DNA from: Escherichia coli
GTDB lineage: Bacteria; Pseudomonadota; Gammaproteobacteria; Enterobacterales; Enterobacteriaceae
Reading direction: 5' to 3' (one strand)
Assembly: GCF_009931435.1 (NCBI RefSeq)
Contig: NZ_CP043414.1
Length of the DNA: 64,000 nucleotides
Both the position numbers and the translations under genes were made by a program. This document shows positions 2,659 to 35,977 of the stretch, piece by piece (the first letter of the stretch is position 1; every line of letters begins with the position of its first letter). Below the pieces are notes generated by a model that worked only from the letters and a program-made list of their open reading frames with translations, was not told the DNA's origin and ran no database searches.

Positions 2659-2804
2659 TTTTTACCCTTCTGTTTTTTGACCTTAAGTCTCCGCATCTTA
2701 GCACAACGTTAATACAGAGCGTGATTTCTGCCGAGCGTGATCAGATTGGCATTTCTTTAATCTTTTATTTGCATATTTTTAACACAAAATACACACTTCG
2801 TCTC

Positions 2805-2821
2805 ATCTGGTACGACCAGAT
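2805..2821. promoter_or_regulatory. FadR operator of the fadBA promoter (palindrome ATCTGGTACGACCAGAT)
   Basis: Perfect 17-bp dyad ATCTGGTACGACCAGAT seen about 26 bp upstream of the fadB ATG; matches the known FadR operator consensus. Confidence 0.7.
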
Positions 2822-2846
2822 CACCTTGCGGATTCAGGAGACTGAC

Positions 2847-5036: not shown

Positions 5037-6209
<1,173 letters not shown>

Positions 6210-7094: not shown

Positions 7095-7139
7095 GCGCTT
7101 TCTCTGTCGGATCGATAAATAGGGCAAAACAAACGCGCA

Positions 7140-8633: not shown

Positions 8634-8754
8634 TGTAGCCTCTTAATCTGCGCCCATTATACGGCGTTCATCTTTGCGATGCTGTAAATTTGTTAAATTA
8701 GCGTGAACTCTGACGGTATAACGCAAACCGGGGAATATAATTAACTTAGCGTAA

Positions 8755-10067
<1,313 letters not shown>

Positions 10068-10108
10068 CCTGTACTCCATATGACAACCGCCCTGACGGGC
10101 GGTTGAAT

Positions 10109-16503: not shown

Positions 16504-17271
16504 ATGGCAGATACCTCTTCAACCACCGCTGGCGCACAAACGTTATTACGCGGGCTCGCGGTTCTTAATGCTGTTTATAACGGCTGCCATGACCTGAAAA
16601 GTATCGGCGAGTTCACCGGCACGACCCGGAGCACAACCCATCGTTTAGTCACCGTTCTGGTGGAACAACGCTACCTGCGCCACGTCCCAACGCAGGGCTA
16701 CCAACTGGGCGCCAAACTGATCGAATTCGGTGCCAGAGCGCTGGAAAGCACCTCGCTGTACGAAGTTGCGCTGCCCGTTTTGCAACGCCTTGCCCGTTAC
16801 ACCCTGGACACCGTGCATCTGGGGATCGTTGAAGGCGACGAAGTGCTGTATCTGGAGAAGATCAACAGCCAGCGCGGGCTGGAAATGCGCTCACGCCCAG
16901 GCCATCGCATGCCACTGGCAATCACCGGCATCGGCAAGGCATTGATCCTCAACCGAACAGAAGAAGAGTGGCGCACGCTGTTTAAGACCTGTGGTGATGA
17001 AACAAAACTGGGCGCATTTATTCAGAACATGCGTCGTTATGCCGCGAGTGGTTTTGCTTTTGATCTGGAAGAGAACGAGCCGACTATCCGTTGCGTTGCA
17101 GCGCCGGTTTACAACGCCCGGGATGAAATTGTGGCGGCTATTTCTGTCGCCAGTACCACTACGTATATGTCACTGGCGCGTCTGGAAGAACTGGCACCTT
17201 ACGTCAAATCCTGTGCAGAAGAGATATCCGCTGAACTGGGCTGGGGTAAGCACGTCCGCAAAAATAAATAA
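16504..17271 (+). CDS. IclR-family transcriptional regulator
   Basis: Track ORF 16417..17271 trimmed to MADTSSTTAGAQTLLRGLAVLNAV... after an AGGAG RBS; N-terminal HTH plus C-terminal effector domain typical of IclR proteins. Confidence 0.8.
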   Translation: MADTSSTTAGAQTLLRGLAVLNAVYNGCHDLKSIGEFTGTTRSTTHRLVTVLVEQRYLRHVPTQGYQLGAKLIEFGARALESTSLYEVALPVLQRLARYTLDTVHLGIVEGDEVLYLEKINSQRGLEMRSRPGHRMPLAITGIGKALILNRTEEEWRTLFKTCGDETKLGAFIQNMRRYAASGFAFDLEENEPTIRCVAAPVYNARDEIVAAISVASTTTYMSLARLEELAPYVKSCAEEISAELGWGKHVRKNK

Positions 17272-17294
17272 ACCATGACTAAAGGAAACGGCTA

Positions 17295-18299
17295 ATGTCG
17301 GGAAACACCTCATTTATTGCCCTGGACTGGGGAACGTCATCGCTTCGGGCATGGCGTTTTGGCGATTCACCAAATCCACAAGAAAAACGTGAATTCCCGT
17401 GGGGGATCATGAAATTACCCTCCCAGGCAGCAACACGTGAGGACGCTTTCCACGATACGTTTTTACGTGTCTGCGGCGACTGGCTGGCACAATCCCCATG
17501 CCCGGTTCTGGCTTGCGGCATGATCGGCAGTGCGCAAGGGTGGCAACCCGCAGCTTATTTACCTTGCCCGGTCACTCTCGAGGGTCTGGCAAAGCAGTTG
17601 ACGCCTGTTATCCACCAGCAGCAGACAATGCTGCATATTATTCCTGGCGTGATTAAAGAAGGTGAAATGCCCGAAGTAATGCGTGGTGAAGAGACACAAA
17701 TCTTCGGTGCTATCTCGATGGAACCGGCCCTGCAAAACGCGATCCGCCAGGGTATGCCTGTGCTGATTGGCTTACCTGGCACACATGCGAAATGGGCGGT
17801 AGTTGAAAACAACACCATTACCGATTTCCGAACCTTTATGACTGGCGAGTTATTTGATGTTTTATCCCGCCATTCGATTCTCGGTGCCACCATGCGTTCG
17901 GGAGATGAACCGCACTGGGATGCCTTCACCCATGGGCTGACAGCAGCACAAGAGCATCATCAGACCGGATTATTATCGACGCTGTTTTCGACCCGTTCGC
18001 GCCTGCTGACCAGTAATCTTACGCCGTCCTCACAGGGGGATTACCTTTCAGGATTACTGATAGGCCATGAATTATGCGGTCTGGCATCCAGTTTGCTACG
18101 TGATTTACCCGCCACAACACCGATCGCCTTAATCGGTAGCGCCACTCTGAACAGCCGCTATTCACAAGCATTCAGCCACGTTTTTCCCGACAGACAGCTA
18201 CACGCCATTCCTAATGCCACTGAACAGGGGTTATGGCGAATCGCCCACGTTGCCGGGCTACTCTCCACCAACGCCAGGGAATGTACCCATGCCATTTAA
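17295..18299 (+). CDS. 2-dehydro-3-deoxygalactonokinase-like sugar-acid kinase (DgoK family)
   Basis: 334-aa ORF MSGNTSFIALDWGTSSLRAWRF...; N-terminal DWGT(S/T) motif and overall resemblance to DgoK. Confidence 0.7.
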   Translation: MSGNTSFIALDWGTSSLRAWRFGDSPNPQEKREFPWGIMKLPSQAATREDAFHDTFLRVCGDWLAQSPCPVLACGMIGSAQGWQPAAYLPCPVTLEGLAKQLTPVIHQQQTMLHIIPGVIKEGEMPEVMRGEETQIFGAISMEPALQNAIRQGMPVLIGLPGTHAKWAVVENNTITDFRTFMTGELFDVLSRHSILGATMRSGDEPHWDAFTHGLTAAQEHHQTGLLSTLFSTRSRLLTSNLTPSSQGDYLSGLLIGHELCGLASSLLRDLPATTPIALIGSATLNSRYSQAFSHVFPDRQLHAIPNATEQGLWRIAHVAGLLSTNARECTHAI

Positions 18300-18918
18300 T
18301 ACGCTTTTGCAAAAAACCGGGTTAGTCGCCATTTTACGCGGCGTGAAACCGGATGAGATTGTCGCCATCGGTGAAAAGCTGTATGCCGCTGGATTTCGCC
18401 TGATTGAGATTCCCATGAACTCGCCGGAGCCGTTGCAAAGTATCAGTTTACTGCGCGACGCCCTGCCTAAGGACTGCCTGGTCGGAGCCGGAACGGTGCT
18501 TTCGGTGGAGCAAGTCGTCGCGGTTAAAGAGGCTGGAGGCCAGATTATCGTGATGCCGCATTGCGATACTGCGGTGATCCGTCGTGCCCGTGCGCTGGGT
18601 ATGTATTGTGCGCCTGGCGTCGCTACGCCCACCGAAGCTTTTGCTGCCATTGAACATGGCGCCAATGCCATCAAGCTGTTCCCGGCTGAACAAATTACGC
18701 CTGAAGTCACCAAAGCCTGGCGTGCGGTTATTCCACAATCCGTTCCGATGTTACCGGTTGGCGGTATCACTCCAGACACAATGGCGCGTTATCTGAGCCA
18801 CGGCGCAAACGGCTTTGGCCTCGGTTCTGCGCTATATCGCCCCGGCATGACGCCAGAGCAAGTCTATGAAAATGCAGTACTGTTTATGAACGCATGGAAC
18901 AATTTAAATAGCAAATAA
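18289..18918 (+). CDS. KDPG / KDPGal aldolase-family protein (DgoA/Eda-like)
   Basis: Track ORF 18214..18918 trimmed to MPFNTLLQKTGLVAILRGVKPDEIVAIGEKLYAAGF...; overlaps the kinase stop by 11 nt. Confidence 0.7.
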   Translation: MPFNTLLQKTGLVAILRGVKPDEIVAIGEKLYAAGFRLIEIPMNSPEPLQSISLLRDALPKDCLVGAGTVLSVEQVVAVKEAGGQIIVMPHCDTAVIRRARALGMYCAPGVATPTEAFAAIEHGANAIKLFPAEQITPEVTKAWRAVIPQSVPMLPVGGITPDTMARYLSHGANGFGLGSALYRPGMTPEQVYENAVLFMNAWNNLNSK

Positions 18919-18942
18919 CTGATAAATAAGGATATAAAAGCA

Positions 18943-19917
18943 ATGATAAAACATCTTACCTTACCGAAAAAAATGGCTGCAATGGTACTTCTTGCCGGCG
19001 CTGCCCTCAGCACTGCGCCTGTACAGGCGGCCTCCTGGCCAACCAAACAAATCGAGTTAGTCGTACCCTACGCGGCCGGAGGCGGTACGGACCTGGTTGC
19101 CCGAGCCTTTGCTGATGCCGCCAAAAACCATTTACCCGTCAGCATCGGGGTTATCAATAAACCTGGCGGTGGCGGCGCTATCGGCCTGAGTGAAATCGCC
19201 GCTGCCCGCCCTAACGGTTACAAAATGGGTTTAGGCACGGTTGAACTGACCACCCTTCCCAGCCTCGGAATGGTGCGTTTTAAAACCAGCGACTTTAAAC
19301 CCATTGCCCGTCTGAATGCGGATCCGGCGGCTATCACCGTCCGTGCCGATGCGCCGTGGAATAGCTATGAAGAATTTATGACTTACGCCAAAGCGAATCC
19401 CGGAAAAGTACGCATTGGTAACTCAGGCACCGGAGCAATCTGGCATCTGGCGGCAGCTGCACTGGAAGACAAAACGGGCGTGAAGTTTTCTCATGTCCCG
19501 TATGACGGCGCAGCCCCTGCCATTACAGGCCTGTTAGGCGGGCATATTGAAGCGGTTTCCGTAAGCCCAGGTGAAGTTATCAATCATGTGAAAGGCGGCA
19601 AGCTGAAGACACTGGTAGTGATGGCGGATGAACGTATGAAAACCATGCCTGACGTCCCGACGTTAAAAGAGAAAGGCGTTGATCTCTCCATCGGCACCTG
19701 GCGCGGCCTGATTGTGTCGCAAAAAACGCCGCAGGATGTGGTGGATGTGCTGGCAAAGGCAGCAAAAGAGACGGCTGAAGAGCCTGCATTCCAGGATGCA
19801 CTGCAAAAGTTGAATCTCAACTATGCATGGCTTGATGGTGCCAGCTTCCAGACCCAAATCAACGAGCAGGAAAAGTACTTTGACGAGCTTCTGACTCGCC
19901 TGGGCCTGAAAAAATAA
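18943..19917 (+). CDS. Tripartite tricarboxylate transporter periplasmic substrate-binding protein (TctC/Bug family)
   Basis: 324-aa ORF with signal peptide MIKHLTLPKKMAAMVLLAGAALSTAPVQAA; TctC-like sequence. Confidence 0.75.
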   Translation: MIKHLTLPKKMAAMVLLAGAALSTAPVQAASWPTKQIELVVPYAAGGGTDLVARAFADAAKNHLPVSIGVINKPGGGGAIGLSEIAAARPNGYKMGLGTVELTTLPSLGMVRFKTSDFKPIARLNADPAAITVRADAPWNSYEEFMTYAKANPGKVRIGNSGTGAIWHLAAAALEDKTGVKFSHVPYDGAAPAITGLLGGHIEAVSVSPGEVINHVKGGKLKTLVVMADERMKTMPDVPTLKEKGVDLSIGTWRGLIVSQKTPQDVVDVLAKAAKETAEEPAFQDALQKLNLNYAWLDGASFQTQINEQEKYFDELLTRLGLKK

Positions 19918-19933
19918 TCCCGAGGTACGGTCG

Positions 19934-20440
19934 ATGAACACAAAACAGTCTGTTGCTCAACTCGCCGTACCGCACCGCAAGCGCCTTTCATCCACTGTGG
20001 TGGTGGCGCTGTTACTTTGTGTGGTTGCTGGCGCGGTGATAATTAATGCCGCTGATTTTCCAGCAACTGCCATTGAAACGGATCCCGGTGCAAGTGCCTT
20101 CCCTACTTTCTATGCCTGCGCTCTGATTGTGCTCGCTGTCTTACTGGTGATACGCGATCTTTTGCTGGCAAAACCAGTCCCTTGCGCCAACGCACAGGAA
20201 AAACCGGCATTAAGGAAAACGGCAACAGGAATTGCGGCAACCGCGTTTTATATTGTGGCGATGAGCTACTGCGGTTATCTCGTTACTACTCCTGTTTTCC
20301 TCATCGTCATTATGACGTTGATGGGCTACAGGCGATGGGTACTCACTCCGGGTATTGCGCTGCTGTTAACGGCAATCCTCTGGTTGCTGTTTGTCGAAGC
20401 GTTACAGGTGCCATTGCCTGTCGGCACATTTTTCGAATAA
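19934..20440 (+). CDS. Tripartite tricarboxylate transporter small membrane subunit (TctB family)
   Basis: 168-aa hydrophobic ORF between the TctC- and TctA-like genes. Confidence 0.65.
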   Translation: MNTKQSVAQLAVPHRKRLSSTVVVALLLCVVAGAVIINAADFPATAIETDPGASAFPTFYACALIVLAVLLVIRDLLLAKPVPCANAQEKPALRKTATGIAATAFYIVAMSYCGYLVTTPVFLIVIMTLMGYRRWVLTPGIALLLTAILWLLFVEALQVPLPVGTFFE

Positions 20441-20452
20441 CAGGGGCCTGCA

Positions 20453-21943
20453 ATGTTTGAAAGTGAACTTTTAACTCAGGGGTTTTCGACATTACTCAGT
20501 AATCCTCAGGCGCTGCTGTTTGCCACGTTTGGAGTGATGCTGGGTATTATGATTGGCGCTCTGCCTGGCCTGACAGCGACCATGGGTGTGGCGATTTTGC
20601 TGCCTTTCACCTACGGCATGGAGCCTGTTTCTGGCTTGTTGATGATTTGCGGTGTCTTTTTTGGTGGTGTGTATGGTGGTTCTATCACCGCAATTTTGCT
20701 CAAAATTCCCGGTACACCTGCCGCCGCTGCCACCGCCATTGACGGTTATGAGTTAACGAAGCAGGGAAAAGCCGGGCTGGCATTAAGTGCCGCCACGTTC
20801 TCTTCTTTTAGCGGTGGAACGCTCAGCATTATCGTATTGATGTTTCTCTCTCCGGTCCTTGCTAGTTGGGCGTTGAAATTTAGTGCCTCGGAGTCCTTCG
20901 CCCTGGCAACCTTCGGACTGAGCATTATTGCCAGTATTTCCGGTGAGTCGCTGATTAAAGGGCTGATCGCCGGGATTGGCGGATTAATGATCGCAACGAT
21001 AGGCCTCGATCCGATGGGCGGTTTTCCACGCTTTACGGGCGGGTTTGTGGAACTGATGAATGTGCCATTTATCCCGGTGATGATTGGTCTGTTTGCTGCT
21101 TCAGAAGCGTTCCGTTCTATGGAACAAAATCAGCATATTCGTCAGAGCGCGAACGTGGCTATCGGCAGTCTGTTACTGCCCTGGCAAACGCTACGCCGCA
21201 TCGCATTAACCATTTTGCGCTCATCAGGATTAGGGGTTTTTATCGGCATGATCCCCGGTGCGGGGGCAGATATTGCAGCTTTTGTTGCCTATAACGAAAC
21301 TCGTCGTTTCAGTAAGACGCCTGAAAACTTTGGTAAGGGTGAGATTAAGGCGGTGGCCTCCTGTGAGGCAGGCGCGAATGGCTGCACCGGTGGCGCATTG
21401 TTACCTATGCTGACGTTGGGGATCCCAGGCGATGCGGTAACTGCCATCATGCTGGGCGCGTTAACGTTACAAGGGATGCAGCCAGGCCCACTGATGTTTA
21501 CCGACCACGGCGATATGGTTTATACGTTATTTGTCGGCATGATCTTCTGTTACTTCATGCTGCTAGTTCTTGGACTGCTCTCTTTGAAAGTCATCGGTAA
21601 CGTGGTGAAAATTCCCGGCAATATTCTCACACCGATGATCCTCGCACTTTGTGTGGTCGGGACTTATGCGTTGAACAATAGCCTGTTTGATGTTGGCATT
21701 ATGCTGATTGCAGGCGTGGTGGGCTATTTCATGCAAAAAGGGGGATATCCGGCATCACCCGTAGTGCTGGCATTGATTATGGGGCCAATGGCGGAAAGTA
21801 ATTTTCGCCGTGCGCTGTCGCTTTCAGGGGGGTCACTCGACTTCCTGTATACCCGACCGATAACCCTGGCATTGCTGACACTGGCAGCCTTTACGCTACT
21901 GACGCCAATAATACGCAAAATTATGCGCTTACGGCGTCAGTAA
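20453..21943 (+). CDS. Tripartite tricarboxylate transporter large permease (TctA family)
   Basis: 496-aa polytopic membrane ORF MFESELLTQGFSTLLSNPQALLFATFGVMLGIMIGALPGLTATMG...; TctA-like. Confidence 0.75.
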   Translation: MFESELLTQGFSTLLSNPQALLFATFGVMLGIMIGALPGLTATMGVAILLPFTYGMEPVSGLLMICGVFFGGVYGGSITAILLKIPGTPAAAATAIDGYELTKQGKAGLALSAATFSSFSGGTLSIIVLMFLSPVLASWALKFSASESFALATFGLSIIASISGESLIKGLIAGIGGLMIATIGLDPMGGFPRFTGGFVELMNVPFIPVMIGLFAASEAFRSMEQNQHIRQSANVAIGSLLLPWQTLRRIALTILRSSGLGVFIGMIPGAGADIAAFVAYNETRRFSKTPENFGKGEIKAVASCEAGANGCTGGALLPMLTLGIPGDAVTAIMLGALTLQGMQPGPLMFTDHGDMVYTLFVGMIFCYFMLLVLGLLSLKVIGNVVKIPGNILTPMILALCVVGTYALNNSLFDVGIMLIAGVVGYFMQKGGYPASPVVLALIMGPMAESNFRRALSLSGGSLDFLYTRPITLALLTLAAFTLLTPIIRKIMRLRRQ

Positions 21944-24245: not shown

Positions 24246-24914
24246 ATGACGCAATCCATTTTTCAGGCTCAACCCTTTGAATTACCTTTTGATCCGCGCA
24301 CAACTGCACTGGTCATGATCGACATGCAGCGTGACTTTGTCGAAGCAGGGGGCTTCGGTGAGGCACTGGGCAATGATGTTTCACTGGTACGCACGGCTAT
24401 CGCACCATGTACAGAGGTGCTGGCAGCCGCACGTCAAAAAGGAATTATGGTTATTCATACTCGTGAAGGCCATCGTGCAGACTTAAGCGACTGCCCGCCA
24501 GCCAAACTGACGCGCGGCGGAAAAACCTTTATTGGTGAACCAGGACCGATGGGACGCATTCTGGTCAGAGGTGAAGCGGGTCATGACATCATTCCTGAAC
24601 TGTACCCAGTGACAGGCGAACCGGTGATTGATAAGCCCGGTAAAGGCGCTTTTTATCAAACCGACTTACATCTGATTTTGCAAAACCACGGTATCAAGAC
24701 GCTGATAGTTTGTGGTGTAACAACCGAAGTTTGCGTAACCACCACCGTGCGCGAAGCAAATGACCGTGGCTATGAATGCATTATCCCGGAAGATTGTGTC
24801 GGCTCATATTTCCCGGAATTCCAGAAATATGCCCTCGAGATGATCAAAGCACAAGGTGCCATTTTCGGTTGGGTGAGTGATTCCAAAGCCATTATTGCAG
24901 GTCTGGAAGGCTAA
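24246..24914 (+). CDS. Isochorismatase-family cysteine hydrolase (RutB / N-carbamoylsarcosine amidase-like)
   Basis: 222-aa ORF; family motifs ALVMIDMQRDF (Asp), conserved Lys and LIVCGVTTEVCV (catalytic Cys); GGAG RBS. Confidence 0.75.
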   Translation: MTQSIFQAQPFELPFDPRTTALVMIDMQRDFVEAGGFGEALGNDVSLVRTAIAPCTEVLAAARQKGIMVIHTREGHRADLSDCPPAKLTRGGKTFIGEPGPMGRILVRGEAGHDIIPELYPVTGEPVIDKPGKGAFYQTDLHLILQNHGIKTLIVCGVTTEVCVTTTVREANDRGYECIIPEDCVGSYFPEFQKYALEMIKAQGAIFGWVSDSKAIIAGLEG

Positions 24915-24919: not shown

Positions 24920-25780
24920 ATGGTACAGGTGACGCTTTGCGCATCATCGTTGGGATATCTTTTCCCGCAAAATGAAACGCAAGATTTACGTCTGCATAGT
25001 GCTTTTAAACATGCGGTAAATCTGTATTCAGAAGCGGGAACATTCATCACTCTGTTGTGTGCGCAAACGTATCTGAATCTCCCTGATGCCGCCAGAGTCA
25101 ACCTGCCTGAGAATTGGGACTGGCGAAGAGAGATTGCCCATTCAGATCCCATTCAGTTAACCCCAGGCTTGTTACAAACACCTCGCTTTTGCGTGGTGCT
25201 TCATAACACAACACTTTGGCAACCGCCATTTGTGGGGGGAATGCTGACACTTGAGGCATTCCCTTTGGTTTTCCAGCACTACCCAACGATGGCATCGCAA
25301 CGGCTTTTATTTTGTCTGGAGCATAACGTTCAAAGCACATTGCACCTGCCGGATAGTCTCACGCACCAGGGATTAGCGATTATGGAACATCCAGATGCAC
25401 TGGAACGCCAGGTGCCACAACTGATCGGCTTTGGTAAAGGCTTAACGCCCGATGGAGATGACTATTTGTTGGGCTATCTGGCAGCGCTCTGGTTATGGCA
25501 ACTCCCTGCAACACTTGCCGATCATCAATACCGGTTGCAGCAGGCAATTGATCAACATGCGCACAACACCACGGATATCAGTCGTCATTATCTGGAGCGT
25601 GCGCTTCAGGGGCATTTTTCAGAACCGATTTGCCAGTTACTCGCACAACTGGTTGGGGGCGCATCGGAAATGACAATCGCATCCTGTGCAGAACAGGTCA
25701 TGCAATTTGGCGCAACGTCAGGAGTAGATTGCCTTGCAGGAATGCTGCATGGCTTTCGAACCCTGAACACCATGAATTGA
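24920..25780 (+). CDS. DUF2877-family protein (YlbF/YahE-like)
   Basis: 286-aa ORF starting 6 bp after the hydrolase stop; resemblance to YlbF/YahE proteins that accompany FdrA-like genes. Confidence 0.55.
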   Translation: MVQVTLCASSLGYLFPQNETQDLRLHSAFKHAVNLYSEAGTFITLLCAQTYLNLPDAARVNLPENWDWRREIAHSDPIQLTPGLLQTPRFCVVLHNTTLWQPPFVGGMLTLEAFPLVFQHYPTMASQRLLFCLEHNVQSTLHLPDSLTHQGLAIMEHPDALERQVPQLIGFGKGLTPDGDDYLLGYLAALWLWQLPATLADHQYRLQQAIDQHAHNTTDISRHYLERALQGHFSEPICQLLAQLVGGASEMTIASCAEQVMQFGATSGVDCLAGMLHGFRTLNTMN

Positions 25781-25874
25781 TTTCAACCTTTTCTCCCGTA
25801 GCCCATTTATGGCGCTACACGGGGATGCTTTGCCCGAATTTTGCTATCGGGCGGAATAAAACAGGCGTAACAGC

Positions 25875-27434
25875 ATGAAAGTTAAATATAAAGTTTTCAG
25901 CAATCTTTATCAGGACTCGGTTTCTCTGATGCAGATTTCCGCGCAAATCAGTAAGTTGCCCGGTATTCAACAGGCCTCGGTCGTCATGGGAACACCCAAT
26001 AATCTCGAACAATTGCGCGATGCGGGTCTGGGTAACGAAATCAACGCCAGTCCCAATGATTTAGTGATTGCAGTCATGGGTGAAGAAGATATTTGCAATG
26101 AAGCACTGATACTGGCCCAGCAACGTCTGACCAGCAAACCCGATGATGAAACGGATAGTGGCATTAAAACACCGGAAAATGTCAGCCTGGAAATGGCACT
26201 GGAAGCCGACACCGAAGCCAACCTGGCACTCATTTCTGTACCGGGAGACTACGCCGCCGCCGAAGCAATTAAAGCGTTAAACCTCGGAATGAACGTGATG
26301 ATGTTCAGCGATAACGTCAGTATCGGGCAGGAAAAATCCATCAAAACACTTGCCCGAGAACGTCAGCGCATCGTAATGGGACCTGATTGTGGAACCGCCA
26401 TTGTTAACGGCATTCCGTTAGGCTTCGCTAATGTGGTGAAACGCGGAGCAATTGGTGTTATTGGCGCGTCAGGCACCGGGCTACAGGAAGTGACTTGCCG
26501 AATCGACCAGCTCGGAGCGGGTATTTCTCAGGCGTTGGGAACAGGCGGGCATGATCTCAGTGAAGAGATTGGTGGAATATCGATGCTCTTCGCTTTAGAT
26601 GCGCTGGCGCAAGACGATGAAACTCGCGTGATTGTGCTTATTTCAAAACCGCCTTCACCGATCGTTGCCCGGGCTATTCTGGAGCGCGCCGAGGCTTGTG
26701 GAAAACCCGTGGTGGTGAATTTCCTCGGTGCGAATCCGCATGATCTGGCACGTCCCAATATCACCGCTGCCGCCACACTTGCCAGCGCCGCAAATATCGC
26801 CGTGGCAGTACTGAATGATCAGCCACTTCCGACTGTCGAGACCGAGATTTCCTGCGACGATCTCACAATGTTACAAAACGCCTGCCAGCGTCTGCCAGCC
26901 CATCGCCAGGCGATACGCGGTGTTTTCGCCGGAGGAACCTTCTGTTACGAAGCGCAACTTATCTGCCAGCAAAAGGGATTCAGCGCCGCCTCCAATACGC
27001 CAGTTGCGGGTAATCGTACTCTGGCAAATATCTGGCAAAGCAAAGGTCACACGCTGATCGATATGGGCGACGATGATTTCACCCGTGGCAAACCGCATCC
27101 AATGATCGACCCGACTCTGCGCAATCAACGTCTGCTCAACGAACTCAACGACTCACACACTGCCGTCGTGTTATTCGACCTGGTACTTGGTTATGGCGCT
27201 TCCGCTACGCCTGCCAGCGAATTACTGGACCAACTTTCACACATCGACATGAATAACGCACCGTTGCTGATTGCGCACGTTTGCGGAACGGAAGCTGATC
27301 CGCAAATACGCAGTCAGCAGATAAGCGCACTACAAAATGCGGGCATCATCATTGCCAGCAGCAATGCACAGGCGGCGCTATGGGCCAGCGCCGTTGCGCA
27401 GACTCAGTTGCAGAAAAAGGGGCTAAACGCATGA
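25875..27434 (+). CDS. FdrA-family protein (CoA-ligase-like; FdrA/YahF paralogue)
   Basis: 519-aa ORF MKVKYKVFSNLYQDSVSLMQISAQ...; conserved blocks NVMMFSDNV, MGPDCGT, GVIGASGTGLQE and GKPHPMIDPTLRNQ match remembered FdrA. Confidence 0.75.
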   Translation: MKVKYKVFSNLYQDSVSLMQISAQISKLPGIQQASVVMGTPNNLEQLRDAGLGNEINASPNDLVIAVMGEEDICNEALILAQQRLTSKPDDETDSGIKTPENVSLEMALEADTEANLALISVPGDYAAAEAIKALNLGMNVMMFSDNVSIGQEKSIKTLARERQRIVMGPDCGTAIVNGIPLGFANVVKRGAIGVIGASGTGLQEVTCRIDQLGAGISQALGTGGHDLSEEIGGISMLFALDALAQDDETRVIVLISKPPSPIVARAILERAEACGKPVVVNFLGANPHDLARPNITAAATLASAANIAVAVLNDQPLPTVETEISCDDLTMLQNACQRLPAHRQAIRGVFAGGTFCYEAQLICQQKGFSAASNTPVAGNRTLANIWQSKGHTLIDMGDDDFTRGKPHPMIDPTLRNQRLLNELNDSHTAVVLFDLVLGYGASATPASELLDQLSHIDMNNAPLLIAHVCGTEADPQIRSQQISALQNAGIIIASSNAQAALWASAVAQTQLQKKGLNA

Positions 27435-28855
27435 ATACCTTATTTAATCAGCCTTTGAAGGTCGTGAACGCGGGACTACACAGTTTTGCTGACAATATTC
27501 AACATGCCGGGGGAAGCGCAATTGCACTCAACTGGCAGCCACCAGCACAAGGCGATATTGACGCTGGATTGGATCTGGCATCGTTGCTACGTCATCCACT
27601 AGTAGAAAATGCCAATCAAATCGCCATGACACGTTATCTCGAAGCACAACCCGTGCTGGTGGATGTCATGCTCGCTAAAGAGGCCATTCCAGCAATGGCT
27701 GAACAAAAACGTATTTTGCACTCTGGTCCGCCGATTGCCTGGGAAGAGATGTGTGGTCCGGTAAAAGGGGCGATTATTGGTGCCATGCTGTACGAAGGTT
27801 GGGCCACCAGCCAGCAAGACGCTGAAAACCAGATAAACACAGGCGAAATCGACCTTGCCCCTTGTCATCATTATCACGCGGTTGGACCAATGGCAGGCAT
27901 CATCAGCCCGTCGATGCCGTTATGGGTGGTAGAAAACAAAACCAACGGCCACCGTACTTTTAGCAATTTCAATGAAGGTCTGGGTAAGGTTCTCCGTTTT
28001 GGTGCCAATAACGATGAAGTTCTCAATCGTCTGGCCTGGATGCGCGATGAACTGGCACCGGCAATGAAAGCAGCAATCGCACAACACGGCGAGCTGGAAC
28101 TCAAGCCATTAATGGCGCAGGCGCTGCATATGGGGGATGAAGTTCATAACCGCAATGCTGCCGCTACCGGTTTGCTGATTAAGCGCCTGCTCCCGGCATT
28201 GCTGGCCTGCTCTATTCCACAGGAACATATCCAGCGCGTCGTGGCATTTATCACCAGTAACGATCACTTCTTCCTCAATCTGTCGATGGCTGCCTGTAAA
28301 GCGATGATGGATGCCGCCGCCAATGTACCGTTCAGTTCAATGGTTACGGTGATGGCGCGTAACGGGGTGAATTTTGGTATTCGGCTTTCCGGTACTGGCG
28401 ATCGCTGGTTCCAGGCTCCTGCCAATGCAGTTGAAGGTCTGTTCTTCCCCGGATTTGGCGTCGACGATGCCGCTGCTGACCTGGGTGATAGCGCAATTAC
28501 CGAAACCGCAGGTGTGGGTGGCTTCGCGATGGCGTCATCTCCAGCGATCGTCAAATTTGTGGGAGGCACCCCTGCCGATGCCACCAATAACAGCCGTAGG
28601 ATGCAAGCAATCACCCTCGGTGGTAACCCCGCATTTACACTTCCTGCCCTCAATTTTGCCCCCACCGCAGCAGGGATTGATGCGCGTAAAGTGACCGATC
28701 GCGGCATTTTACCGGTCATCAATACGGGTATCGCCCACAAACAAGCGGGGGTCGGGCAAATTGGTGCCGGGATCACCACTGCGCCGATGGCCTGTTTTGT
28801 CGCCGCTGTACGTGCACTGTCTGAGATCGTCGCAAAGGAGAACCATCATGGTTAA
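27431..28855 (+). CDS. DUF1116-family protein (YlbE/YahG-like)
   Basis: Track ORF 27380..28855 trimmed to MNTLFNQPLKVVNAGLHSFADNIQ...; ATGA overlap with the FdrA-like stop. Confidence 0.65.
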   Translation: MNTLFNQPLKVVNAGLHSFADNIQHAGGSAIALNWQPPAQGDIDAGLDLASLLRHPLVENANQIAMTRYLEAQPVLVDVMLAKEAIPAMAEQKRILHSGPPIAWEEMCGPVKGAIIGAMLYEGWATSQQDAENQINTGEIDLAPCHHYHAVGPMAGIISPSMPLWVVENKTNGHRTFSNFNEGLGKVLRFGANNDEVLNRLAWMRDELAPAMKAAIAQHGELELKPLMAQALHMGDEVHNRNAAATGLLIKRLLPALLACSIPQEHIQRVVAFITSNDHFFLNLSMAACKAMMDAAANVPFSSMVTVMARNGVNFGIRLSGTGDRWFQAPANAVEGLFFPGFGVDDAAADLGDSAITETAGVGGFAMASSPAIVKFVGGTPADATNNSRRMQAITLGGNPAFTLPALNFAPTAAGIDARKVTDRGILPVINTGIAHKQAGVGQIGAGITTAPMACFVAAVRALSEIVAKENHHG

Positions 28856-29804
28856 GCCACTGGCTGTTGTCGCAGTTGGCGGCAATGCGCTCATTCAGGA
28901 CGAGCAACGCAATAGTATTCCCGATCAATATGTTGCAGTGATGGAAAGCGTGCAGCATATCGTTGATATGGTTGAAGCCGGATGGGACCTGGTGCTTACC
29001 CACGGTAATGGCCCGCAGGTGGGCTTTATTCTGCGCCGCTCTGAACTCGCCAGTAACGAAGTTTCTCCGGTTCCACTTGATTACGCCGTGGGTGATACAC
29101 AAGGTGCAATTGGCTACATGTTCCAGAAAGCGCTGCATAACGAATTGGCTCGCCGTGGCATAAACAAACCGGTAATTGCGCTGGTGACACAAACGCGAGT
29201 CTGCCCACATGACGATGCTTTCACCAGCCCCAGTAAACCGATTGGCGCGTTTCTCGATGAAGCAACGGCCCTACAACGCCAACAGCAACTCGGCTGGACG
29301 CTGATGGAGGACGCCGGGCGTGGTTGGCGGCGTACAGTTCCCTCTCCTGCGCCACTGGAAATTATTGAGCACGACACCATCGCTCACCTGGTGCGCCAGG
29401 GATATCTGGTTATTGCCTGCGGCGGTGGCGGTATTCCGGTGGTGCGAGACGGACAACAACTGAAAGGTGTGGAAGCCGTGATCGATAAAGATCTGGCCTC
29501 CGCGCTGCTCGCCAGTCAGTTAGGCGCAGATCTGCTGGTGATCCCCACCGGTGTAGAAAAAGTGGCGATTAACTTTGGTACACCACAACAACAGTGGCTC
29601 GACGCTATCAGCGTTGCCGAAGCGCAAACGCTGTTACGGGAAGGTCAGTTTGGTGTCGGCAGTATGCAGCCCAAAGTGGAAGCCATTGTTGATTTCATCA
29701 ATGCCAGCCAACAACAAGGCAAACAGGCCAGCGGCCTGATTACTTCACCGCAAACCATAAAAGCAGCCCTTTCGCATCAGAGCGGCACATGGATAACCCT
29801 TTAA
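28848..29804 (+). CDS. Carbamate kinase-family protein (ArcC/YahI-like)
   Basis: Track ORF 28761..29804 trimmed to MVKPLAVVAVGGNALIQDEQ... after AAGGAG RBS; amino-acid-kinase fold signatures (AVGGNAL, THGNGPQVG, VIACGGGGIPV); overlaps upstream gene by 8 nt. Confidence 0.75.
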   Translation: MVKPLAVVAVGGNALIQDEQRNSIPDQYVAVMESVQHIVDMVEAGWDLVLTHGNGPQVGFILRRSELASNEVSPVPLDYAVGDTQGAIGYMFQKALHNELARRGINKPVIALVTQTRVCPHDDAFTSPSKPIGAFLDEATALQRQQQLGWTLMEDAGRGWRRTVPSPAPLEIIEHDTIAHLVRQGYLVIACGGGGIPVVRDGQQLKGVEAVIDKDLASALLASQLGADLLVIPTGVEKVAINFGTPQQQWLDAISVAEAQTLLREGQFGVGSMQPKVEAIVDFINASQQQGKQASGLITSPQTIKAALSHQSGTWITL

Positions 29805-29820: not shown

Positions 29821-30210
29821 ATGACTACAACACTTTTAGCCGTTAACGGAACGCTGATGCGTGGCCTGGAACTCAACCCAAATATGCAAAAAGCGGGCGG
29901 CATTTTTGTCCGTGAAGACCGAACTGACGCCCATTACAGGTTGTGGAGTATTAACGATCGTCATCCGGGAATGATTCGCGTGAATGAAGGAGGAACACAC
30001 GTCGACGTAGAAATTTGGCAATTACCACTGACCAGTTTTGCCGCTCTGTTAATGAGCGAACCCGCTGGGCTGGCAATTGGCAAAATCAAACTTGCCGATG
30101 GTAGCGAAGTGCTGGGCGTACTGGCAGAAAACTGGCTGACCGAAGGCCAACGGGAAATTACAGAACTGGGTAGCTGGCGCAAATACACCGGGCATTTTCA
30201 TACTGTGTAA
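29821..30210 (+). CDS. Small protein, possibly gamma-glutamylcyclotransferase / AIG2-like fold
   Basis: 129-aa ORF MTTTLLAVNGTLMRGLELNPNM...; the N-terminal [YV]G[ST]LM/K motif resembles GGCT-like proteins; weak assignment. Confidence 0.4.
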   Translation: MTTTLLAVNGTLMRGLELNPNMQKAGGIFVREDRTDAHYRLWSINDRHPGMIRVNEGGTHVDVEIWQLPLTSFAALLMSEPAGLAIGKIKLADGSEVLGVLAENWLTEGQREITELGSWRKYTGHFHTV

Positions 30211-30235: not shown

Positions 30236-31459
30236 ATGCGTAAAAAAGAAGAGAATCTGAATACAGCATCAGGATTGCGTATTGCCATGATTTTACTGGG
30301 TATTGCCGTCACACCTGTGCTGTTGTCATCCTCAAGCCTCGGCAATCAACTTTCCAGCGGCAGTTTAATTAGCGTCGTATTGTTAGGCGGCGTCATTCTG
30401 ACCTTACTTTCAGCCATCACCATTAGCGTGGGAGAAAAAGCCCGCCTGCCAACGTATGGCATTGTGAAATATTCGTTTGGCGAAAAAGGGGCCATCGCCA
30501 TTAACATTTTGATGGCGATAAGTCTGTTCGGCTGGATTGCCGTTACCGCCAATATGTTTGGTCATTCGGTACATGACTTACTGGCTCAACATGGACTGGA
30601 AGTTCCACTAGCACTGTTAGTGGCTGCTGGCTGTGTCATTTTTGTCGCCTCTACAGCATTTGGTTTTGCCGTTCTGGGAAAAATTGCCCAGGTTGCCGTG
30701 CCGGTTATCGCGCTGGTGCTGTGTTACATCCTCTATGTGGCAACCCATACCGAAGTGGCAGCACCAGCGGTGATTGTGGAGATGAATACGGGTGTCGCTG
30801 TTTCCACCGTTGTTGGCACCATTATTGTGCTGGTTGCCACACTGCCTGATTTCGGTAGTTTTGTGCATAACCGCAAACATGCGCTGATTGCCGCAGGCGT
30901 GACGTTTCTGGTTGCCTACCCTCTGCTCTACTGGGCGGGAGCAACGCCGAGCGCCATTAGTGGTCAGGGATCTTTACTGGGTGCGATGGCGGTATTCGGT
31001 GCGGTTCTGCCCGCGGCGCTGTTGTTGATTTTCGCCTGCGTCACCGGTAACGCGGGCAATATGTTCCAGGGCACGCTGGTGGTTTCCACACTGCTTACCC
31101 ACTTTCCCAAATGGCAGATTACCGTGGCGCTGGGTATCCTTTCCGCCATCGTAGGCAGTCTGGATATTATGGCGTGGTTTATTCCGTTTCTGCTGTTCCT
31201 GGGTATCGCCACGCCACCCGTTGCCGGAATTTATATCGCTGACTTTTTCCTTTATCGCCGTAATGGCTATCAAGAGTCAGTGTTAGCCCAGGAGTCACAG
31301 ATCAAAGTGCTGACATTCGCAGCATGGATCATAGGTGCAGCGGTTGGCTTTATGACCGTAAAAGGCTTATTCACCCTGACGACAATCCCTTCGGTAGACT
31401 CGATTCTGGTGGCATGTATCGCGTATGCGATTCTCAGTCGGGCAAGTCAACGCCGCTAA
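30236..31459 (+). CDS. Polytopic membrane permease, possibly nucleobase-cation symporter (CodB/NCS1-like)
   Basis: 407-aa highly hydrophobic ORF with about 12 predicted TM stretches; family assignment tentative. Confidence 0.5.
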   Translation: MRKKEENLNTASGLRIAMILLGIAVTPVLLSSSSLGNQLSSGSLISVVLLGGVILTLLSAITISVGEKARLPTYGIVKYSFGEKGAIAINILMAISLFGWIAVTANMFGHSVHDLLAQHGLEVPLALLVAAGCVIFVASTAFGFAVLGKIAQVAVPVIALVLCYILYVATHTEVAAPAVIVEMNTGVAVSTVVGTIIVLVATLPDFGSFVHNRKHALIAAGVTFLVAYPLLYWAGATPSAISGQGSLLGAMAVFGAVLPAALLLIFACVTGNAGNMFQGTLVVSTLLTHFPKWQITVALGILSAIVGSLDIMAWFIPFLLFLGIATPPVAGIYIADFFLYRRNGYQESVLAQESQIKVLTFAAWIIGAAVGFMTVKGLFTLTTIPSVDSILVACIAYAILSRASQRR

Positions 31460-31536: not shown

Positions 31537-32433
31537 ATGTTCATCTCAGACGAAACGCTTCGTGTTATTCATCTGGTCGCCAGACACCAGAGCATTACCA
31601 CCGCAGCCGAACAGTTAAATAAAGTCCCTTCCGCCATCAGTTACACCATCAAGAAAGTGGAAGAGAGCCTGGGCGTTGAACTGTTCATTCGTAAGGGACG
31701 CTATATTGAATTATCTCCGGCGGGGAGTTACTTCATCGAACATAGCAAAACTATTCTGGGCGACCTGGAAGCATTAAAGCGCAACACAGTGCTGATTCAC
31801 GATGGTATTGAACGTGAACTGACAATTGCGGTGAACAATATTATTCCTGGTGATTTGCTGGTGGCATTTATTCGAGATTTTGAACGGCAATTCACATCAA
31901 CAACACTGACGGTAGATCTTGAGGTATACAACGGCTGCTGGGATGCGCTGTACAGTAAGCGTGCTGATCTGGTCTACGGTGCTCCTCATGCAGTGCCAAG
32001 CAGTGAAGGCATCATTAGCGAACCGGTCGGACAAATGGAATGGGATTTTGTCGTCAGCCCACTCCACCCACTGGCAGCGAAGCGGCATCCATTAGAAAAC
32101 AGTGAATTGCGTCATTATCCAGCGGTTTGTATCCGCGATACCTCCGTTAACTTCCCCCCGATGCAAGCCTGGCTGTTGGAAGGACAAAAACCGATTTTTG
32201 TTCCTGACTTCGCTACGGCAATCGCCTTAATAGAACAAAACGTCGGTATTGGTTATATTCCACATCATCTGGCATTGCCGTTATTGAACAGCGGTAAATT
32301 GCTTAAAAAGCCAATGCGCGAACATAAACACGCCACCAAGTTATTTCTTGCCGCTCGTTCCGATGGTATGGGCAAAGCCTGTCAGTGGTGCATAGAATAT
32401 TTAAGAAATCCGCAATTAATTTTCTGTTCCTGA
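31537..32433 (+). CDS. LysR-family transcriptional regulator
   Basis: 298-aa ORF with N-terminal LTTR helix-turn-helix SITTAAEQLNKVPSAISYTIKKVEESLGVELFIRKGR; GGGAG RBS. Confidence 0.75.
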   Translation: MFISDETLRVIHLVARHQSITTAAEQLNKVPSAISYTIKKVEESLGVELFIRKGRYIELSPAGSYFIEHSKTILGDLEALKRNTVLIHDGIERELTIAVNNIIPGDLLVAFIRDFERQFTSTTLTVDLEVYNGCWDALYSKRADLVYGAPHAVPSSEGIISEPVGQMEWDFVVSPLHPLAAKRHPLENSELRHYPAVCIRDTSVNFPPMQAWLLEGQKPIFVPDFATAIALIEQNVGIGYIPHHLALPLLNSGKLLKKPMREHKHATKLFLAARSDGMGKACQWCIEYLRNPQLIFCS

Positions 32434-35023: not shown

Positions 35024-35977
35024 ATGATCGAAGTAAAACACCTGAAAACGCTACAAGCGTTGCGGAACTGCGGCTCACTCGCAGCCGCTGCGGCGACGTT
35101 GCATCAAACGCAATCCGCCCTGTCTCACCAGTTTAGCGATCTGGAACAACGCCTTGGCTTCCGGCTATTTGTGCGTAAAAGCCAGCCGCTTCGGTTTACA
35201 CCGCAGGGAGAAATCCTGTTGCAACTGGCGAATCAGGTGCTGCCGCAAATCAGCCAGGCACTGCAAGCCTGCAATGAACCGCAGCAGACGCGCCTGCGCA
35301 TTGCCATTGAGTGCCATAGCTGTATTCAGTGGCTGACGCCCGCGTTAGAAAATTTCCATAAGAACTGGCCGCAGGTGGAGATGGATTTTAAATCGGGCGT
35401 GACGTTTGACCCGCAGCCCGCGTTGCAGCAGGGTGAGCTGGATCTGGTGATGACCTCCGATATTCTGCCACGCAGTGGCCTGCATTATTCGCCGATGTTC
35501 GATTATGAAGTGCGTCTGGTGTTGGCACCTGACCATCCACTGGCGACAAAAACGCGAATCACGCCGGAAGATCTCGCCAGCGAGACGCTGTTAATTTATC
35601 CGGTGCAGCGTAGCCGACTGGATGTCTGGCGGCATTTTCTTCAGCCCGCAGGCGTTAGCCCGTCACTGAAAAGCGTCGATAACACCTTGTTGTTGATTCA
35701 GATGGTTGCCGCACGGATGGGCATCGCTGCGCTACCGCACTGGGTGGTGGAGAGTTTTGAACGCCAGGGTCTGGTGGTCACCAAAACCCTGGGCGAAGGC
35801 TTGTGGAGCCGACTGTACGCCGCCGTGCGCGATGGCGAGCAGCGTCAGCCGATTACAGAAGCGTTTATTCGCTCAGCGCGCAATCACGCCTGCGATCATC
35901 TGCCGTTTGTGAAGAGCGCGGAGCGACCCACTTACGATGCACCCACAGTGAGGCCAGGATCACCAGCGCGCCTGTAA
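35024..35977 (+). CDS. metR: LysR-family activator MetR
   Basis: 317-aa [52 protein letters not shown]...; matches MetR. Confidence 0.95.

Follow-up and report, generated by a model that had tools for sequence, protein, structure and literature searches.

Two gene overlaps in an accessory island of Escherichia coli: probable translational coupling of an FdrA-like, a DUF1116 and a carbamate kinase gene

In the 64,000-nucleotide stretch of Escherichia coli DNA that we analysed (the window), out-of-frame overlaps of 4 and 8 nt join the genes for an FdrA-like protein (F), a DUF1116 protein (G) and a carbamate kinase (K). As read from the sequence, both overlaps are genuine and correctly annotated, and they lie within one co-directional accessory operon. 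The explanation that we favour overall, with good though not complete confidence, is that these overlaps couple translation, that F and G are the two parts of a split enzyme, and that the kinase is the next enzyme of the pathway.

The genes belong to an eight-gene mobile accessory island located between ysgA and metE, of which plasmid copies also occur. The gene order is BiuH/TrtA-like hydrolase, AllH-like, F, G, K, AH_C-like, NCS1 permease and LysR regulator. The features discussed below are the following.

24246–24914, + strand: isochorismatase-family cysteine hydrolase, BiuH/TrtA-like, first gene of the island (Pfam Isochorismatase, 2e-47)
24920–25780, + strand: DUF2877/AllH-like subunit gene, beginning 5 nt past the hydrolase gene (Pfam AllH PF11392, 97 bits)
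25781–25874, + strand: spacer of 94 nt that separates the AllH-like gene from the FdrA-like one and is predicted to form two hairpins (fold z −2.27)
25875–27434, + strand: FdrA/AllF-like gene (F), 519 aa (Pfam CoA_binding and Ligase_CoA; 41% identity to E. coli AllF)
27417–27422, + strand: AAGGGG, Shine–Dalgarno (SD)-like motif for G within the F coding sequence (anti-SD duplex −7.0 kcal/mol)
27431–27434, + strand: ATGA stop/start overlap of F and G, 4 nt (read from the sequence; −4 also in 35 of 75 orthologous loci)
27431–28855, + strand: DUF1116/AllG-like gene (G), 474 aa (Pfam AllG PF06545, 330 bits; start confirmed by alignment)
27452–27586, + strand: N-terminal module of G, residues 8–52, which in E. 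coli allFG is the C-terminus of AllF
28835–28840, + strand: AAGGAG, SD motif for K within the G coding sequence (−8.7 kcal/mol)
28848–28855, + strand: ATGGTTAA, 8-nt overlap of the G stop (TAA) and the K start (ATG) (sequence and PGAP)
28848–29804, + strand: carbamate kinase gene (K), 318 aa (TIGR00746 arcC, 362.3 bits, above the 358.25 cutoff; YahI/YbcF-like N-terminus)
29821–30210, + strand: stand-alone allophanate-hydrolase C-terminal-domain-like (AH_C-like) protein, 129 aa (Pfam AH_C, 141 bits; PDB 5c5z, 6e-85)
30236–31459, + strand: NCS1 (cytosine-permease family) transporter gene (Pfam Transp_cyt_pur; NCBIfam cytosine permease, 146 bits, below cutoff)
31537–32433, + strand: LysR-family regulator, PunR/AllS-like, last gene of the island (Pfam HTH_1 and LysR_substrate)

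F scores 495.3 bits against the NCBIfam FdrA subfamily NF004760 (cutoff 433), it adjoins AllG and AllH homologues that are above the Pfam cutoffs, and a carbamate kinase gene is adjacent; the set is thus of the AllFGH-type carbamoyltransferase plus kinase kind. PDB 3clq matches residues 57–464 of G. The island occurrences include one that closely matches a solved protein, taken here to be CFT073 c4763; a literature search by CFT073 locus tag found no functional data. The closest PDB chains to the hydrolase are TrtA 6xix (3e-79) and BiuH 6azo (5e-70), and its score against the BiuH equivalog NF050097 is 279.6 bits, below the cutoff of 370. The regulator scores 289 bits against PunR and 216 bits against AllS (NCBIfam), both below cutoff. 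Of 5,426 complete E. coli genomes, 1,559 (about 29%) carry the island, BL21 and Nissle 1917 among them, and allG is found in 5,420 of the same 5,426, that is, in addition to the island.

The overlaps, with the embedded AAGGAG, had been described in an earlier note and can be read directly from the letters. The F reading frame (25875–27434) ends with TGA at 27432–27434, and the ATG of G is at 27431–27433; the G frame (27431–28855) ends with TAA at 28853–28855, and the ATG of K is at 28848–28850, preceded by AAGGAG (28835–28840) at a distance of 7 nt. Both junctions have the spacing of coupled pairs (co-directional, −8 to about +6). A ribosome ending F at TGA 27432–27434 would sit on the ATG of G at 27431, and one ending G at TAA 28853–28855 would sit 5 nt beyond the ATG of K at 28848; the SD motifs inside the upstream genes may help re-initiation, or hand-over to a new 30S subunit, so that G and K would be produced whenever F is. 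Judging from this architecture, the overlaps probably couple the translation of F to that of G and of G to that of K. In reporter experiments with other E. coli pairs, coupling was strong at such spacings and was gone by about 20 nt (PMC10666635).

The predicted SD pairing (−7.0 kcal/mol for the G start, −8.7 kcal/mol for the K start) is equalled at only 3.6% and 1.6% of intragenic positions, respectively, and that of K is the strongest among the eight annotated gene starts of the operon. The AAGGAG of K is unpaired in the predicted fold, and the 120-nt windows at both junctions fold no better than shuffled sequences (z +0.62 and +0.84), which leaves RNA unmasking unsupported as a mechanism of coupling. 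The earlier note had also taken the overlaps to suggest a fixed stoichiometry. This does not follow: G and K have strong, unstructured ribosome-binding sites, so that independent initiation could uncouple the protein ratios.

That the genes form a single transcription unit is plausible from the sequence. Predicted promoters and terminators were at or below the numbers expected from shuffled sequences, with none at the F/G or G/K junctions, and the + strand of the spacer 25781–25874 carried no promoter or terminator call. A 140-nt window over this spacer (25761–25900) folds better than its shuffles (z −2.27; 4 of 200 as good). The Rfam/riboswitch scan gave no match above threshold; below threshold, it gave Fluoride (20.2 bits versus 34), on the opposite strand within G, and Mu-gpT-DE (19.8 bits versus 49).

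The junctions were compared among 80 orthologous loci, Nitrospira loci included, in which start codons were picked by an alignment-based rule and not by a gene caller; F-to-G could be measured in 75 of them and G-to-K in 66. The F-to-G distance (range −11 to +51) is at most 20 nt in 73/75 loci and an overlap in 41/75; after reduction to less than 70% identity, 95% of the loci are still within 20 nt and 57% overlap. The G-to-K distance (range −14 to +166) is at most 20 nt in 57/66 loci and an overlap in 35/66; the overlapping fraction falls from 53% to 31% on the same de-replication, and 75–86% are within 20 nt. The commonest G-to-K spacing is −4 (33/66), and −8 occurs in just one locus. The nearest relatives (Citrobacter, Lelliottia, Serratia) differ from E. 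coli in having −4 instead of −8, owing to an altered C-terminal tail of G, which is a variable region. Tightness is therefore conserved while the exact overlap length drifts, and G-to-K is looser than F-to-G. Overlaps were never found at the K-to-AH_C and AH_C-to-permease junctions of these loci. In the full set of loci, the F-G-K junctions clearly stand apart from the others of the operon. The AllH-to-F junction overlaps in 5 of 10 loci after de-replication at 70% identity, which weakens the contrast, and we therefore make no claim that F, G and K alone are tightly spaced.

The earlier note had regarded the overlaps as consistent with the three proteins acting as a complex. For F with G this is well supported by the co-purification of paralogues, by a module found now on one protein and now on the other, and by natural fusions; for the kinase we found no independent support. 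AllF–AllG–AllH is oxamic transcarbamylase (OXTCase): untagged AllG co-purifies with His-AllF/AllH-His, and the activity requires all three genes (PMC11326118). In the comparison by hhalign of a 27-sequence profile of G with AllF, residues 8–52 of G matched AllF 510–554 (probability 96.2%, E 2.6e-9); BLASTP matches for this module had E values of 3e-4 and 1e-4, and the NCBIfam FdrA model matches residues 6–42 of G.

Moreover, at least ten cluster representatives, each about 1,000 aa in length, can be aligned over the whole of concatenated F+G, with the order kept. They surfaced when the concatenated sequence was searched against the library of representatives; with G alone as the query, a word-indexed homologue search listed no fusions, only close orthologues of about 470 aa. 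The five fusions tested have CoA_binding, Ligase_CoA and AllG in a single chain. The fusion genes sit on contigs in normal gene contexts, except for one contig (P0121) too short to show its context. From these comparisons, it appears well supported that a single enzyme is divided between F and G, with a cut whose position varies from operon to operon and which some organisms lack altogether. Their behaviour as one variably cut polypeptide speaks for an obligate 1:1 pair. Tight coupling of F to G thus plausibly helps to make the parts of a split protein in matched amounts and to assemble them co-translationally. The subunit relation, a point not settled by the sole biochemical paper on these enzymes, thereby gains a firmer footing, and for structural studies of AllFGH-type carbamoyltransferases the natural fusions of about 1,000 aa are a convenient source of single chains.

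The overlaps per se are a textbook operon feature of little weight. According to published counts, the commonest spacings in E. coli are −4, −1 and −8. In the annotated equivalent of the window, 10 of 42 same-strand neighbour pairs overlap, most of them of unrelated function (for example yigB-xerC-yigA-dapF and hemC-hemD), and the TatABC and FadBA genes in the window do not overlap. Subunits of heteromeric complexes are enriched 4.5-fold among E. coli pairs of the −4/−8 type (PMC6728339, PMC10666635); where E. coli genes are spaced −8 to +10, the two products are complex partners in only 30.4% of the pairs, and in about 70% they are not. In the island itself, the gene of the third presumed subunit (AllH-like) ends 94 nt upstream of F, therefore overlap does not track subunit membership. 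An overlap by itself is thus weak ground for inferring a complex, being the commonest type of operon junction in E. coli.

The frequency of such junctions also lends some weight to a different explanation, according to which the overlaps are neutral operon compaction: starts and stops would drift within loosely constrained termini, with no role in stoichiometry or assembly. ATGA and ATGnnTAA arrangements arise easily, the distances vary among orthologues (as with the −8 of E. coli versus the −4 of its relatives), and so do the paralogue junctions (allF-to-allG +9, yahF-to-yahG −1, yahG-to-yahI +421). However, F-to-G is within 20 nt in 95–97% of the orthologues, across phyla, where other junctions of the operon are looser; among the overlapping starts of the orthologues, 88% (G) and 71% (K) are preceded by an SD at least as strong as −6 kcal/mol, versus 10% of background positions; and F and G are, by the evidence above, parts of one enzyme. 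We regard purely neutral compaction as unlikely, although it is the most serious of the competitors.

Somewhat less likely still is that F, G and the kinase, together with the AllH-like protein, form a single complex that channels carbamoyl phosphate from transferase to kinase, a reading that the earlier note implies as far as the three proteins are concerned. Carbamoyl phosphate is unstable, hence channelling would be useful. K directly follows G, with the strongest SD of the operon, it overlaps G or lies close to it in most orthologues, and in allFGHK the kinase gene, placed after that of AllH, overlaps it by 4 nt. On the other hand, no fusion of F or G with a kinase was found among the best 150 representatives, and where the kinase is fused, its partner is the AH_C-like protein, not G; this is so in three loci (L028, L029 and L067), the lineages being Mycolicibacterium, a Verrucomicrobia MAG and a Burkholderiales MAG. 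In the yah cluster of K-12, the kinase gene yahI is separated from yahG by 421 nt. The OXTCase preparation is active as AllF–AllG–AllH alone (PMC11326118), and AllK, as presented in PMC9843812, was characterised apart from it. Neither fusion, nor co-purification, nor an adjacency to F/G conserved in all paralogues was found for the kinase; and, as noted above, tight spacing in E. coli does not go with complex partnership in the majority of pairs. We therefore regard the kinase as the next enzyme of the pathway, which would consume carbamoyl phosphate and be tightly co-expressed with F and G, but is not evidently a subunit.

The earlier note had named a corrected start-codon assignment as the result that would remove the overlaps. 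It is very unlikely that they are such annotation artefacts. In-frame alternatives do exist, either downstream (GTG or TTG) or upstream, where ATG 27380 (G) and TTG 28761 (K) would give longer open reading frames, and TTG 28761 has an SD-like match of −9.3 kcal/mol. But the N-terminus of G, MNTLFNQPLKVVNAGL, aligns with that of YahG, MSQSLFSQPLNVINVGI, the N-terminus of K, MVKPLAVVAVGGNAL, aligns with the MKxLVVAxGGNA of YahI/YbcF, and the start codons are at alignment offset 0 in most of the 80 orthologous loci. The 17 and 29 residues that the longer frames would add have no counterpart in any homologue. The longer starts and the downstream ones were rejected because N-terminal conservation disagrees with them. 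PGAP gives identical starts and identical −4/−8 overlaps for the closest E. coli chromosome and for a plasmid copy.

Least probable of all is a programmed −1 frameshift at CAG AAA AAG (27411–27419) that would yield an F–G fusion mimicking the natural ones: A-AAG is a slippery site in E. coli, and the frame of G, −1 relative to F, is open from before 27380, but we rejected this possibility because the run of A is not kept in relatives (Citrobacter has GAG AAG AAG), and in addition many orthologues are non-overlapping and in other frames, no stimulatory structure is predicted (z +0.6), and G is equipped with a conserved ATG and SD of its own.

As to the function of the island, we tentatively suggest a phosphorolytic, ATP-yielding route for a biuret/triuret-type ureide, which would dispense with the AtzF amidase, rather than a second oxalurate pathway; this is a speculative proposal, which we think more likely wrong than right as it stands. 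The NCS1 permease would import the ureide, the BiuH/TrtA-like hydrolase would make allophanate (or carboxybiuret), and the split F–G(+H) carbamoyltransferase would cleave this product, using phosphate, to form carbamoyl phosphate and carbamate; the kinase would then turn carbamoyl phosphate into ATP, and the AH_C-like protein, which is fused to the kinase in some lineages, would handle an N-carboxy intermediate. If this is true, the tight F-to-G-to-K junctions would serve both the assembly of a split enzyme and the fast hand-over of labile carbamoyl phosphate. The link to a gene resembling biuret and triuret hydrolases in any case offers a testable hypothesis for a candidate nitrogen-scavenging pathway.

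The same four families as in the island (FdrA type, DUF1116/AllG, DUF2877/AllH and carbamate kinase) are found in allFGHK (fdrA-ylbE-ylbF-ybcF), described as encoding the oxamic transcarbamylase AllF–AllG–AllH and the catabolic carbamate kinase AllK (PMC11326118, PMC9843812). The junctions of allFGHK are also tight (+9 for allF-allG, then +10 and −4). However, F, G and K of the island are only 41–49% identical to their allFGHK counterparts and AllH is undetected by BLAST, the order is H-F-G-K instead of F-G-H-K, and the F/G boundary is about 55 codons earlier than in allFG, so that the module is on G and not on F. The neighbours differ too: the BiuH/TrtA-like hydrolase, the AH_C-like protein and the NCS1 permease in the island, allantoin genes next to allFGHK. 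We considered and rejected the island as an oxamic transcarbamylase proper, orthologous to allFGH, on the basis of this identity, of its being a separate accessory island and of the additional presence of allG.

The yahDEFGHIJ cluster of K-12 shares much of the layout: YahE (DUF2877), YahF (FdrA-like), YahG (DUF1116) and YahI (carbamate-kinase-like) have the H-F-G...K order of the island, YahG bears the N-terminal module like G, and there are overlaps at yahE-yahF (−11) and yahF-yahG (−1). The proteins are 42–48% identical to those of the island, the kinase gene is further away, and yah lacks the BiuH-like and AH_C-like genes of the island, its neighbours being an ankyrin-repeat protein and the amidohydrolase YahJ.

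Regarding translation, the pairs coupled by termination–reinitiation (Huber et al. 2019, 2023) are, like those of the island, co-directional and spaced −4 or −8, with an SD inside the upstream gene. Regarding metabolism, the biuret/triuret pathway comprises TrtA, (TrtB), BiuH and AtzF (PMC7948467), and the island differs from it by having no AtzF-type amidase. In comammox Nitrospira and ammonia-oxidising archaea, biuH is collocated with allFGHK and codB, and the biuret and oxalurate genes are treated as two neighbouring pathways (PMC12625717). The island resembles these nitrifier contigs, in that it, too, clusters an AllFGH-like set and a kinase with an NCS1 permease and an AH_C-like protein.

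The two overlaps lie within a block of eight co-directional genes that has ysgA on one side and metE on the other:

24246-24914, plus strand, isochorismatase-family cysteine hydrolase (Pfam, NCBIfam and PDB matches)
24920-25780, plus strand, DUF2877/AllH-like gene, H (Pfam, NCBIfam)
25875-27434, plus strand, FdrA/AllF-like gene, F (ORF from the sequence; Pfam, NCBIfam)
27431-28855, plus strand, DUF1116/AllG-like gene, G (Pfam, NCBIfam)
28848-29804, plus strand, carbamate kinase gene, K (Pfam, NCBIfam)
29821-30210, plus strand, 129-aa protein resembling the allophanate hydrolase C-terminal domain, AH_C (Pfam, NCBIfam, PDB 5c5z)
30236-31459, plus strand, NCS1 permease (Pfam, NCBIfam)
31537-32433, plus strand, LysR regulator (Pfam, NCBIfam)

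The whole block is mobile and accessory: 1,559 complete E. coli genomes out of 5,426 (about 29%) carry it, B/BL21, C and Nissle among them, and there are 129 plasmid copies, on about 125 plasmids; on plasmids such as paAPEC5202 (locus L085), it is bordered by transposase and IS fragments. A 2026 comparative paper (PMC12928451) catalogues it as 'GR 29 metE..ysgA', and the coordinates listed there imply identical overlaps. The AH_C-like protein is near-identical to PDB 5c5z (6e-85), an entry whose name, 'Glutamyl-tRNA amidotransferase', is misleading. Just upstream, a second apparently accessory block (16504-21943) encodes an IclR regulator and a TctCBA tripartite tricarboxylate transporter, together with a 2-dehydro-3-deoxygalactonokinase-like gene and an aldolase gene that overlap by 11 nt.

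The overlaps that the earlier note had described are present in the sequence: the F stop TGA (27432-27434) and the G start ATG (27431-27433) form ATGA, a 4-nt overlap, and the K start ATG (28848-28850) precedes the G stop TAA (28853-28855), which gives an 8-nt overlap (28848-28855). The ribosome-binding site that it placed inside G is there too (AAGGAG, 28835-28840, 7 nt before the K ATG). A corrected start assignment, which according to that note could remove the overlaps, does not apply, because alignment to homologues and PGAP support both starts. The N-terminus of G (MNTLFNQPLKVVNAGL) aligns with that of YahG, and the N-terminus of K (MVKPLAVVAVGGNAL) with those of YahI and YbcF; most of 80 orthologous loci have a start codon at the equivalent aligned position. 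PGAP assigns identical starts and spacings of -4 and -8 (negative values being overlaps, in nt) both in a plasmid-borne copy and in the E. coli chromosome that comes closest, at 99.5% identity. Longer in-frame ORFs begin at ATG 27380 (G) and TTG 28761 (K); we rejected them, since their additional residues have no match in homologues.

Overlapping neighbours are nothing unusual: 10 of the 42 same-strand neighbour pairs overlap in the annotated equivalent of the window. The other eight are yigZ-pepQ, ubiB-ubiJ, a dgoK/dgoA-like pair, yigB-xerC, xerC-yigA, yigA-dapF, a DKNYY pair and hemC-hemD, mostly pairs for which no partnership is known. The well-known complexes of the window are encoded without overlap (tatA-B-C, +3 and +2; fadB-A, +9). 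The convergent genes metR (+) and bioP (-) have 3' ends that overlap by ~113 nt (~35864-35976, closest E. coli annotation). Published genome-wide counts for E. coli put -4 first among the spacings, with -1 and -8 next; 707 of 2,987 unidirectional pairs are spaced by -8 to +6, and complex subunits account for 30.4% of the pairs spaced by -8 to +10 vs 6.8% of those more than 20 nt apart (PMC10666635). Overlap therefore lifts the prior for a complex to about one third, no further.

A scan of orthologues, with one genome per species, gave 80 loci (54-87% identity) that span Serratia, Citrobacter, Caballeronia, Vibrio, Mycolicibacterium, Nitrospira, Chloroflexi and Halolactibacillus, with gene order mostly kept.

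Spacing at orthologous junctions (downstream starts set by our own rule, at the aligned N-terminus, with an uncertainty of a few codons)
F to G: 75 loci; 41 overlapping (35 at -4); 73 at 20 nt or less; median -1
G to K: 66 loci; 35 overlapping (33 at -4; -8 once, at locus L027); 57 at 20 nt or less; median -4
Hydrolase to H: 23 loci; 2 overlapping (9%); 19 at 20 nt or less; median +12
H to F: 36 loci; 7 overlapping (19%); 12 at 20 nt or less; median +42
K to AH_C: 27 loci; 0 overlapping; 8 at 20 nt or less; median +35
AH_C to permease: 23 loci; 0 overlapping; 0 at 20 nt or less; median +31

After de-replication (<70% identity), 95% of F-G junctions are at 20 nt or less and 57% overlap; the G-K values fall to 75% and 31%, and overlap at H-F rises to 5 of 10. 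Only the F-G junction is robustly special in its tightness. The exact overlap drifts among relatives: at G-K, E. coli has ATGGTTAA, which followed a change in G's variable C-terminal tail, in place of the ATGA or GTGA of its nearest relatives (Citrobacter, Lelliottia, Serratia, Edwardsiella).

The ribosome-binding signals of G and K are real. The G start pairs with the anti-Shine-Dalgarno sequence at -7.0 kcal/mol and the K start at -8.7 kcal/mol, values attained by 3.6% and 1.6%, respectively, of positions within these genes, and the K signal is the strongest among the eight annotated gene starts of the operon. A Shine-Dalgarno motif within the upstream gene is strongly conserved at overlapping orthologue junctions: 88% (G) and 71% (K) have one of -6 kcal/mol or better, compared to 10% of background positions. 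This architecture is compatible with translation of G and K by termination-reinitiation (reviewed in PMC12548453) or by Shine-Dalgarno-assisted hand-over. Coupling has been shown by experiment at other E. coli pairs spaced by -4 or -1 and is gone at ~20 nt (PMC10666635); coupling of F, G and K is thus plausible, and would be typical. Independent initiation at G and K is also possible, because their signals are strong and accessible, and the fixed stoichiometry that had been proposed does not follow: such starts would not imply 1:1:1. Coupling by RNA unfolding is not supported, as the junctions fold no better than shuffled sequences (z +0.62 and +0.84) and AAGGAG is unpaired. No internal terminator, promoter or Rfam element stands out in the operon; a fluoride riboswitch match antisense in G (27887-27962, minus strand; 20.2 bits vs a gathering threshold of 34, E 0.058) is most likely due to chance. 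The 94-nt H-F spacer (25781-25874) is predicted to form two hairpins (z -2.27 vs shuffles for the 140-nt window 25761-25900) and the F start has a weak signal (-2.5 kcal/mol); the spacer could be an element of processing, stability or translational control.

The earlier note took the overlaps as consistent with a complex of all three proteins. The F-G part is supported by three independent lines, none of which is the overlap, and from which we infer that the window's own pair would associate. First, in the paralogous allFGHK system, untagged AllG co-purified with His-AllF/AllH-His, activity requires all three genes, and AllF and AllG seemed to be present in similar amounts (PMC11326118).

Second, the F/G gene boundary is mobile. 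Residues 8-52 of G (27452-27586; motif V[IV]N[VA]GL.SFA...W.PPA.GD) are kept in all orthologues and in YahG, and AllG and PDB 3clq lack this module, both beginning at about the equivalent of residue 57. In the K-12 allFGHK set, the ~45-residue module is the C-terminus of AllF (residues 510-554; 5208-5345 in locus L002), as judged from hhalign (probability 96.2%, E 2.6e-9) and BLASTP (3e-4 and 1e-4); the NCBIfam FdrA model matches G residues 6-42. The summed length of F and G holds steady, at 993 aa in the window, 974 in the all set and 987 in the yah set.

Third, a phmmer search with concatenated F+G against 1.84 billion representatives gave, as best matches, single ~1,000-aa proteins aligned end to end; one of them (P0121, 1,007 aa) covers query positions 4-981. 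At least 10 cluster representatives (P0121-P0131, P0139; ~1,000-1,095 aa) are single-chain fusions, from metagenomes and one eukaryotic data set. All five fusions tested combine CoA_binding, Ligase_CoA and AllG in one chain, and one fusion has an extra C-terminal cupin domain. Their contigs are ordinary (loci L087, L088 at 2123-5134, and L089 at 7001-10087); in L088, the AllH gene comes next, with a 17-nt overlap, and an NCS1 permease and an amidase are close by. The same search returned both split forms, F with the module (~570-600 aa) and G without it (~410-430 aa). F and G thus look like a split protein with a moving cut point, which makes their tight coupling biologically sensible.

The inclusion of the kinase in the complex is unsupported. 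None of the best 150 matches of that search fuses F or G to a kinase, yahI lies 421 nt from yahG, and AllK was studied separately (PMC9843812). Single ~450-aa proteins that join the kinase to AH_C occur in Mycolicibacterium, a Verrucomicrobia MAG and a Burkholderiales MAG (L028, 7410-8774; L029, 2276-3652; L067, 7422-8765), which links the kinase functionally to the product of 29821-30210. The gene of the presumed third subunit, H, is 94 nt upstream of F, across the spacer. Overlap does not track subunit membership.

Regarding the pathway, the closest PDB entries to the hydrolase are triuret hydrolase TrtA (6xix, 3e-79) and then biuret hydrolase BiuH (6azo, 5e-70); it scores 279.6 bits against the BiuH equivalog, below the cutoff of 370, and is 81-92% identical in most proteobacterial loci with the full eight-gene cluster. 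The island encodes AH_C as a stand-alone protein but no AtzF-type amidase. These findings suggest that the AllFGH-like enzyme and the kinase act downstream of biuret/triuret-type hydrolysis. A 2025 study (PMC12625717) noted that biuH, codB and allFGHK sit together in comammox Nitrospira and in ammonia-oxidising archaea, and read the biuH/allFGHK collocation as two neighbouring pathways. A single pathway, in which allophanate or carboxybiuret made by the hydrolase would undergo phosphorolysis by F-G-H to carbamoyl phosphate, from which the kinase would make ATP, strikes us as rather unlikely; the proposed step would be chemically analogous to oxalurate cleavage.

Overall, the observation of the earlier note is confirmed and its interpretation partly supported. 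As a feature, the junction is of an ordinary operon type, had been annotated already and belongs to a new paralogue of an enzyme system whose description is recent. Useful by-products are the moving boundary between F and G, their natural fusions and the link to biuret hydrolase. AllF-AllG-AllH is oxamic transcarbamylase (PMC11326118), and AllK is the catabolic carbamate kinase of allFGHK (PMC9843812). The island set is a third paralogue beside K-12 allFGHK and yahEFGI: F, G and K are 41-49% identical to their all and yah paralogues, H is more diverged (25% identity to YahE), and no similarity was detected between H and YlbF. Since allG is a core gene (5,420 of 5,426 genomes), island carriers have the island set on top of allFGHK, which suggests a different substrate. 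The junctions also differ: the island has -4 at F-G and -8 at G-K, whereas the all set has +9 (allF-allG), +10 (allG-allH) and -4 (allH-allK), and the yah set -11 (yahE-yahF), -1 (yahF-yahG) and +421 (yahG-yahI).
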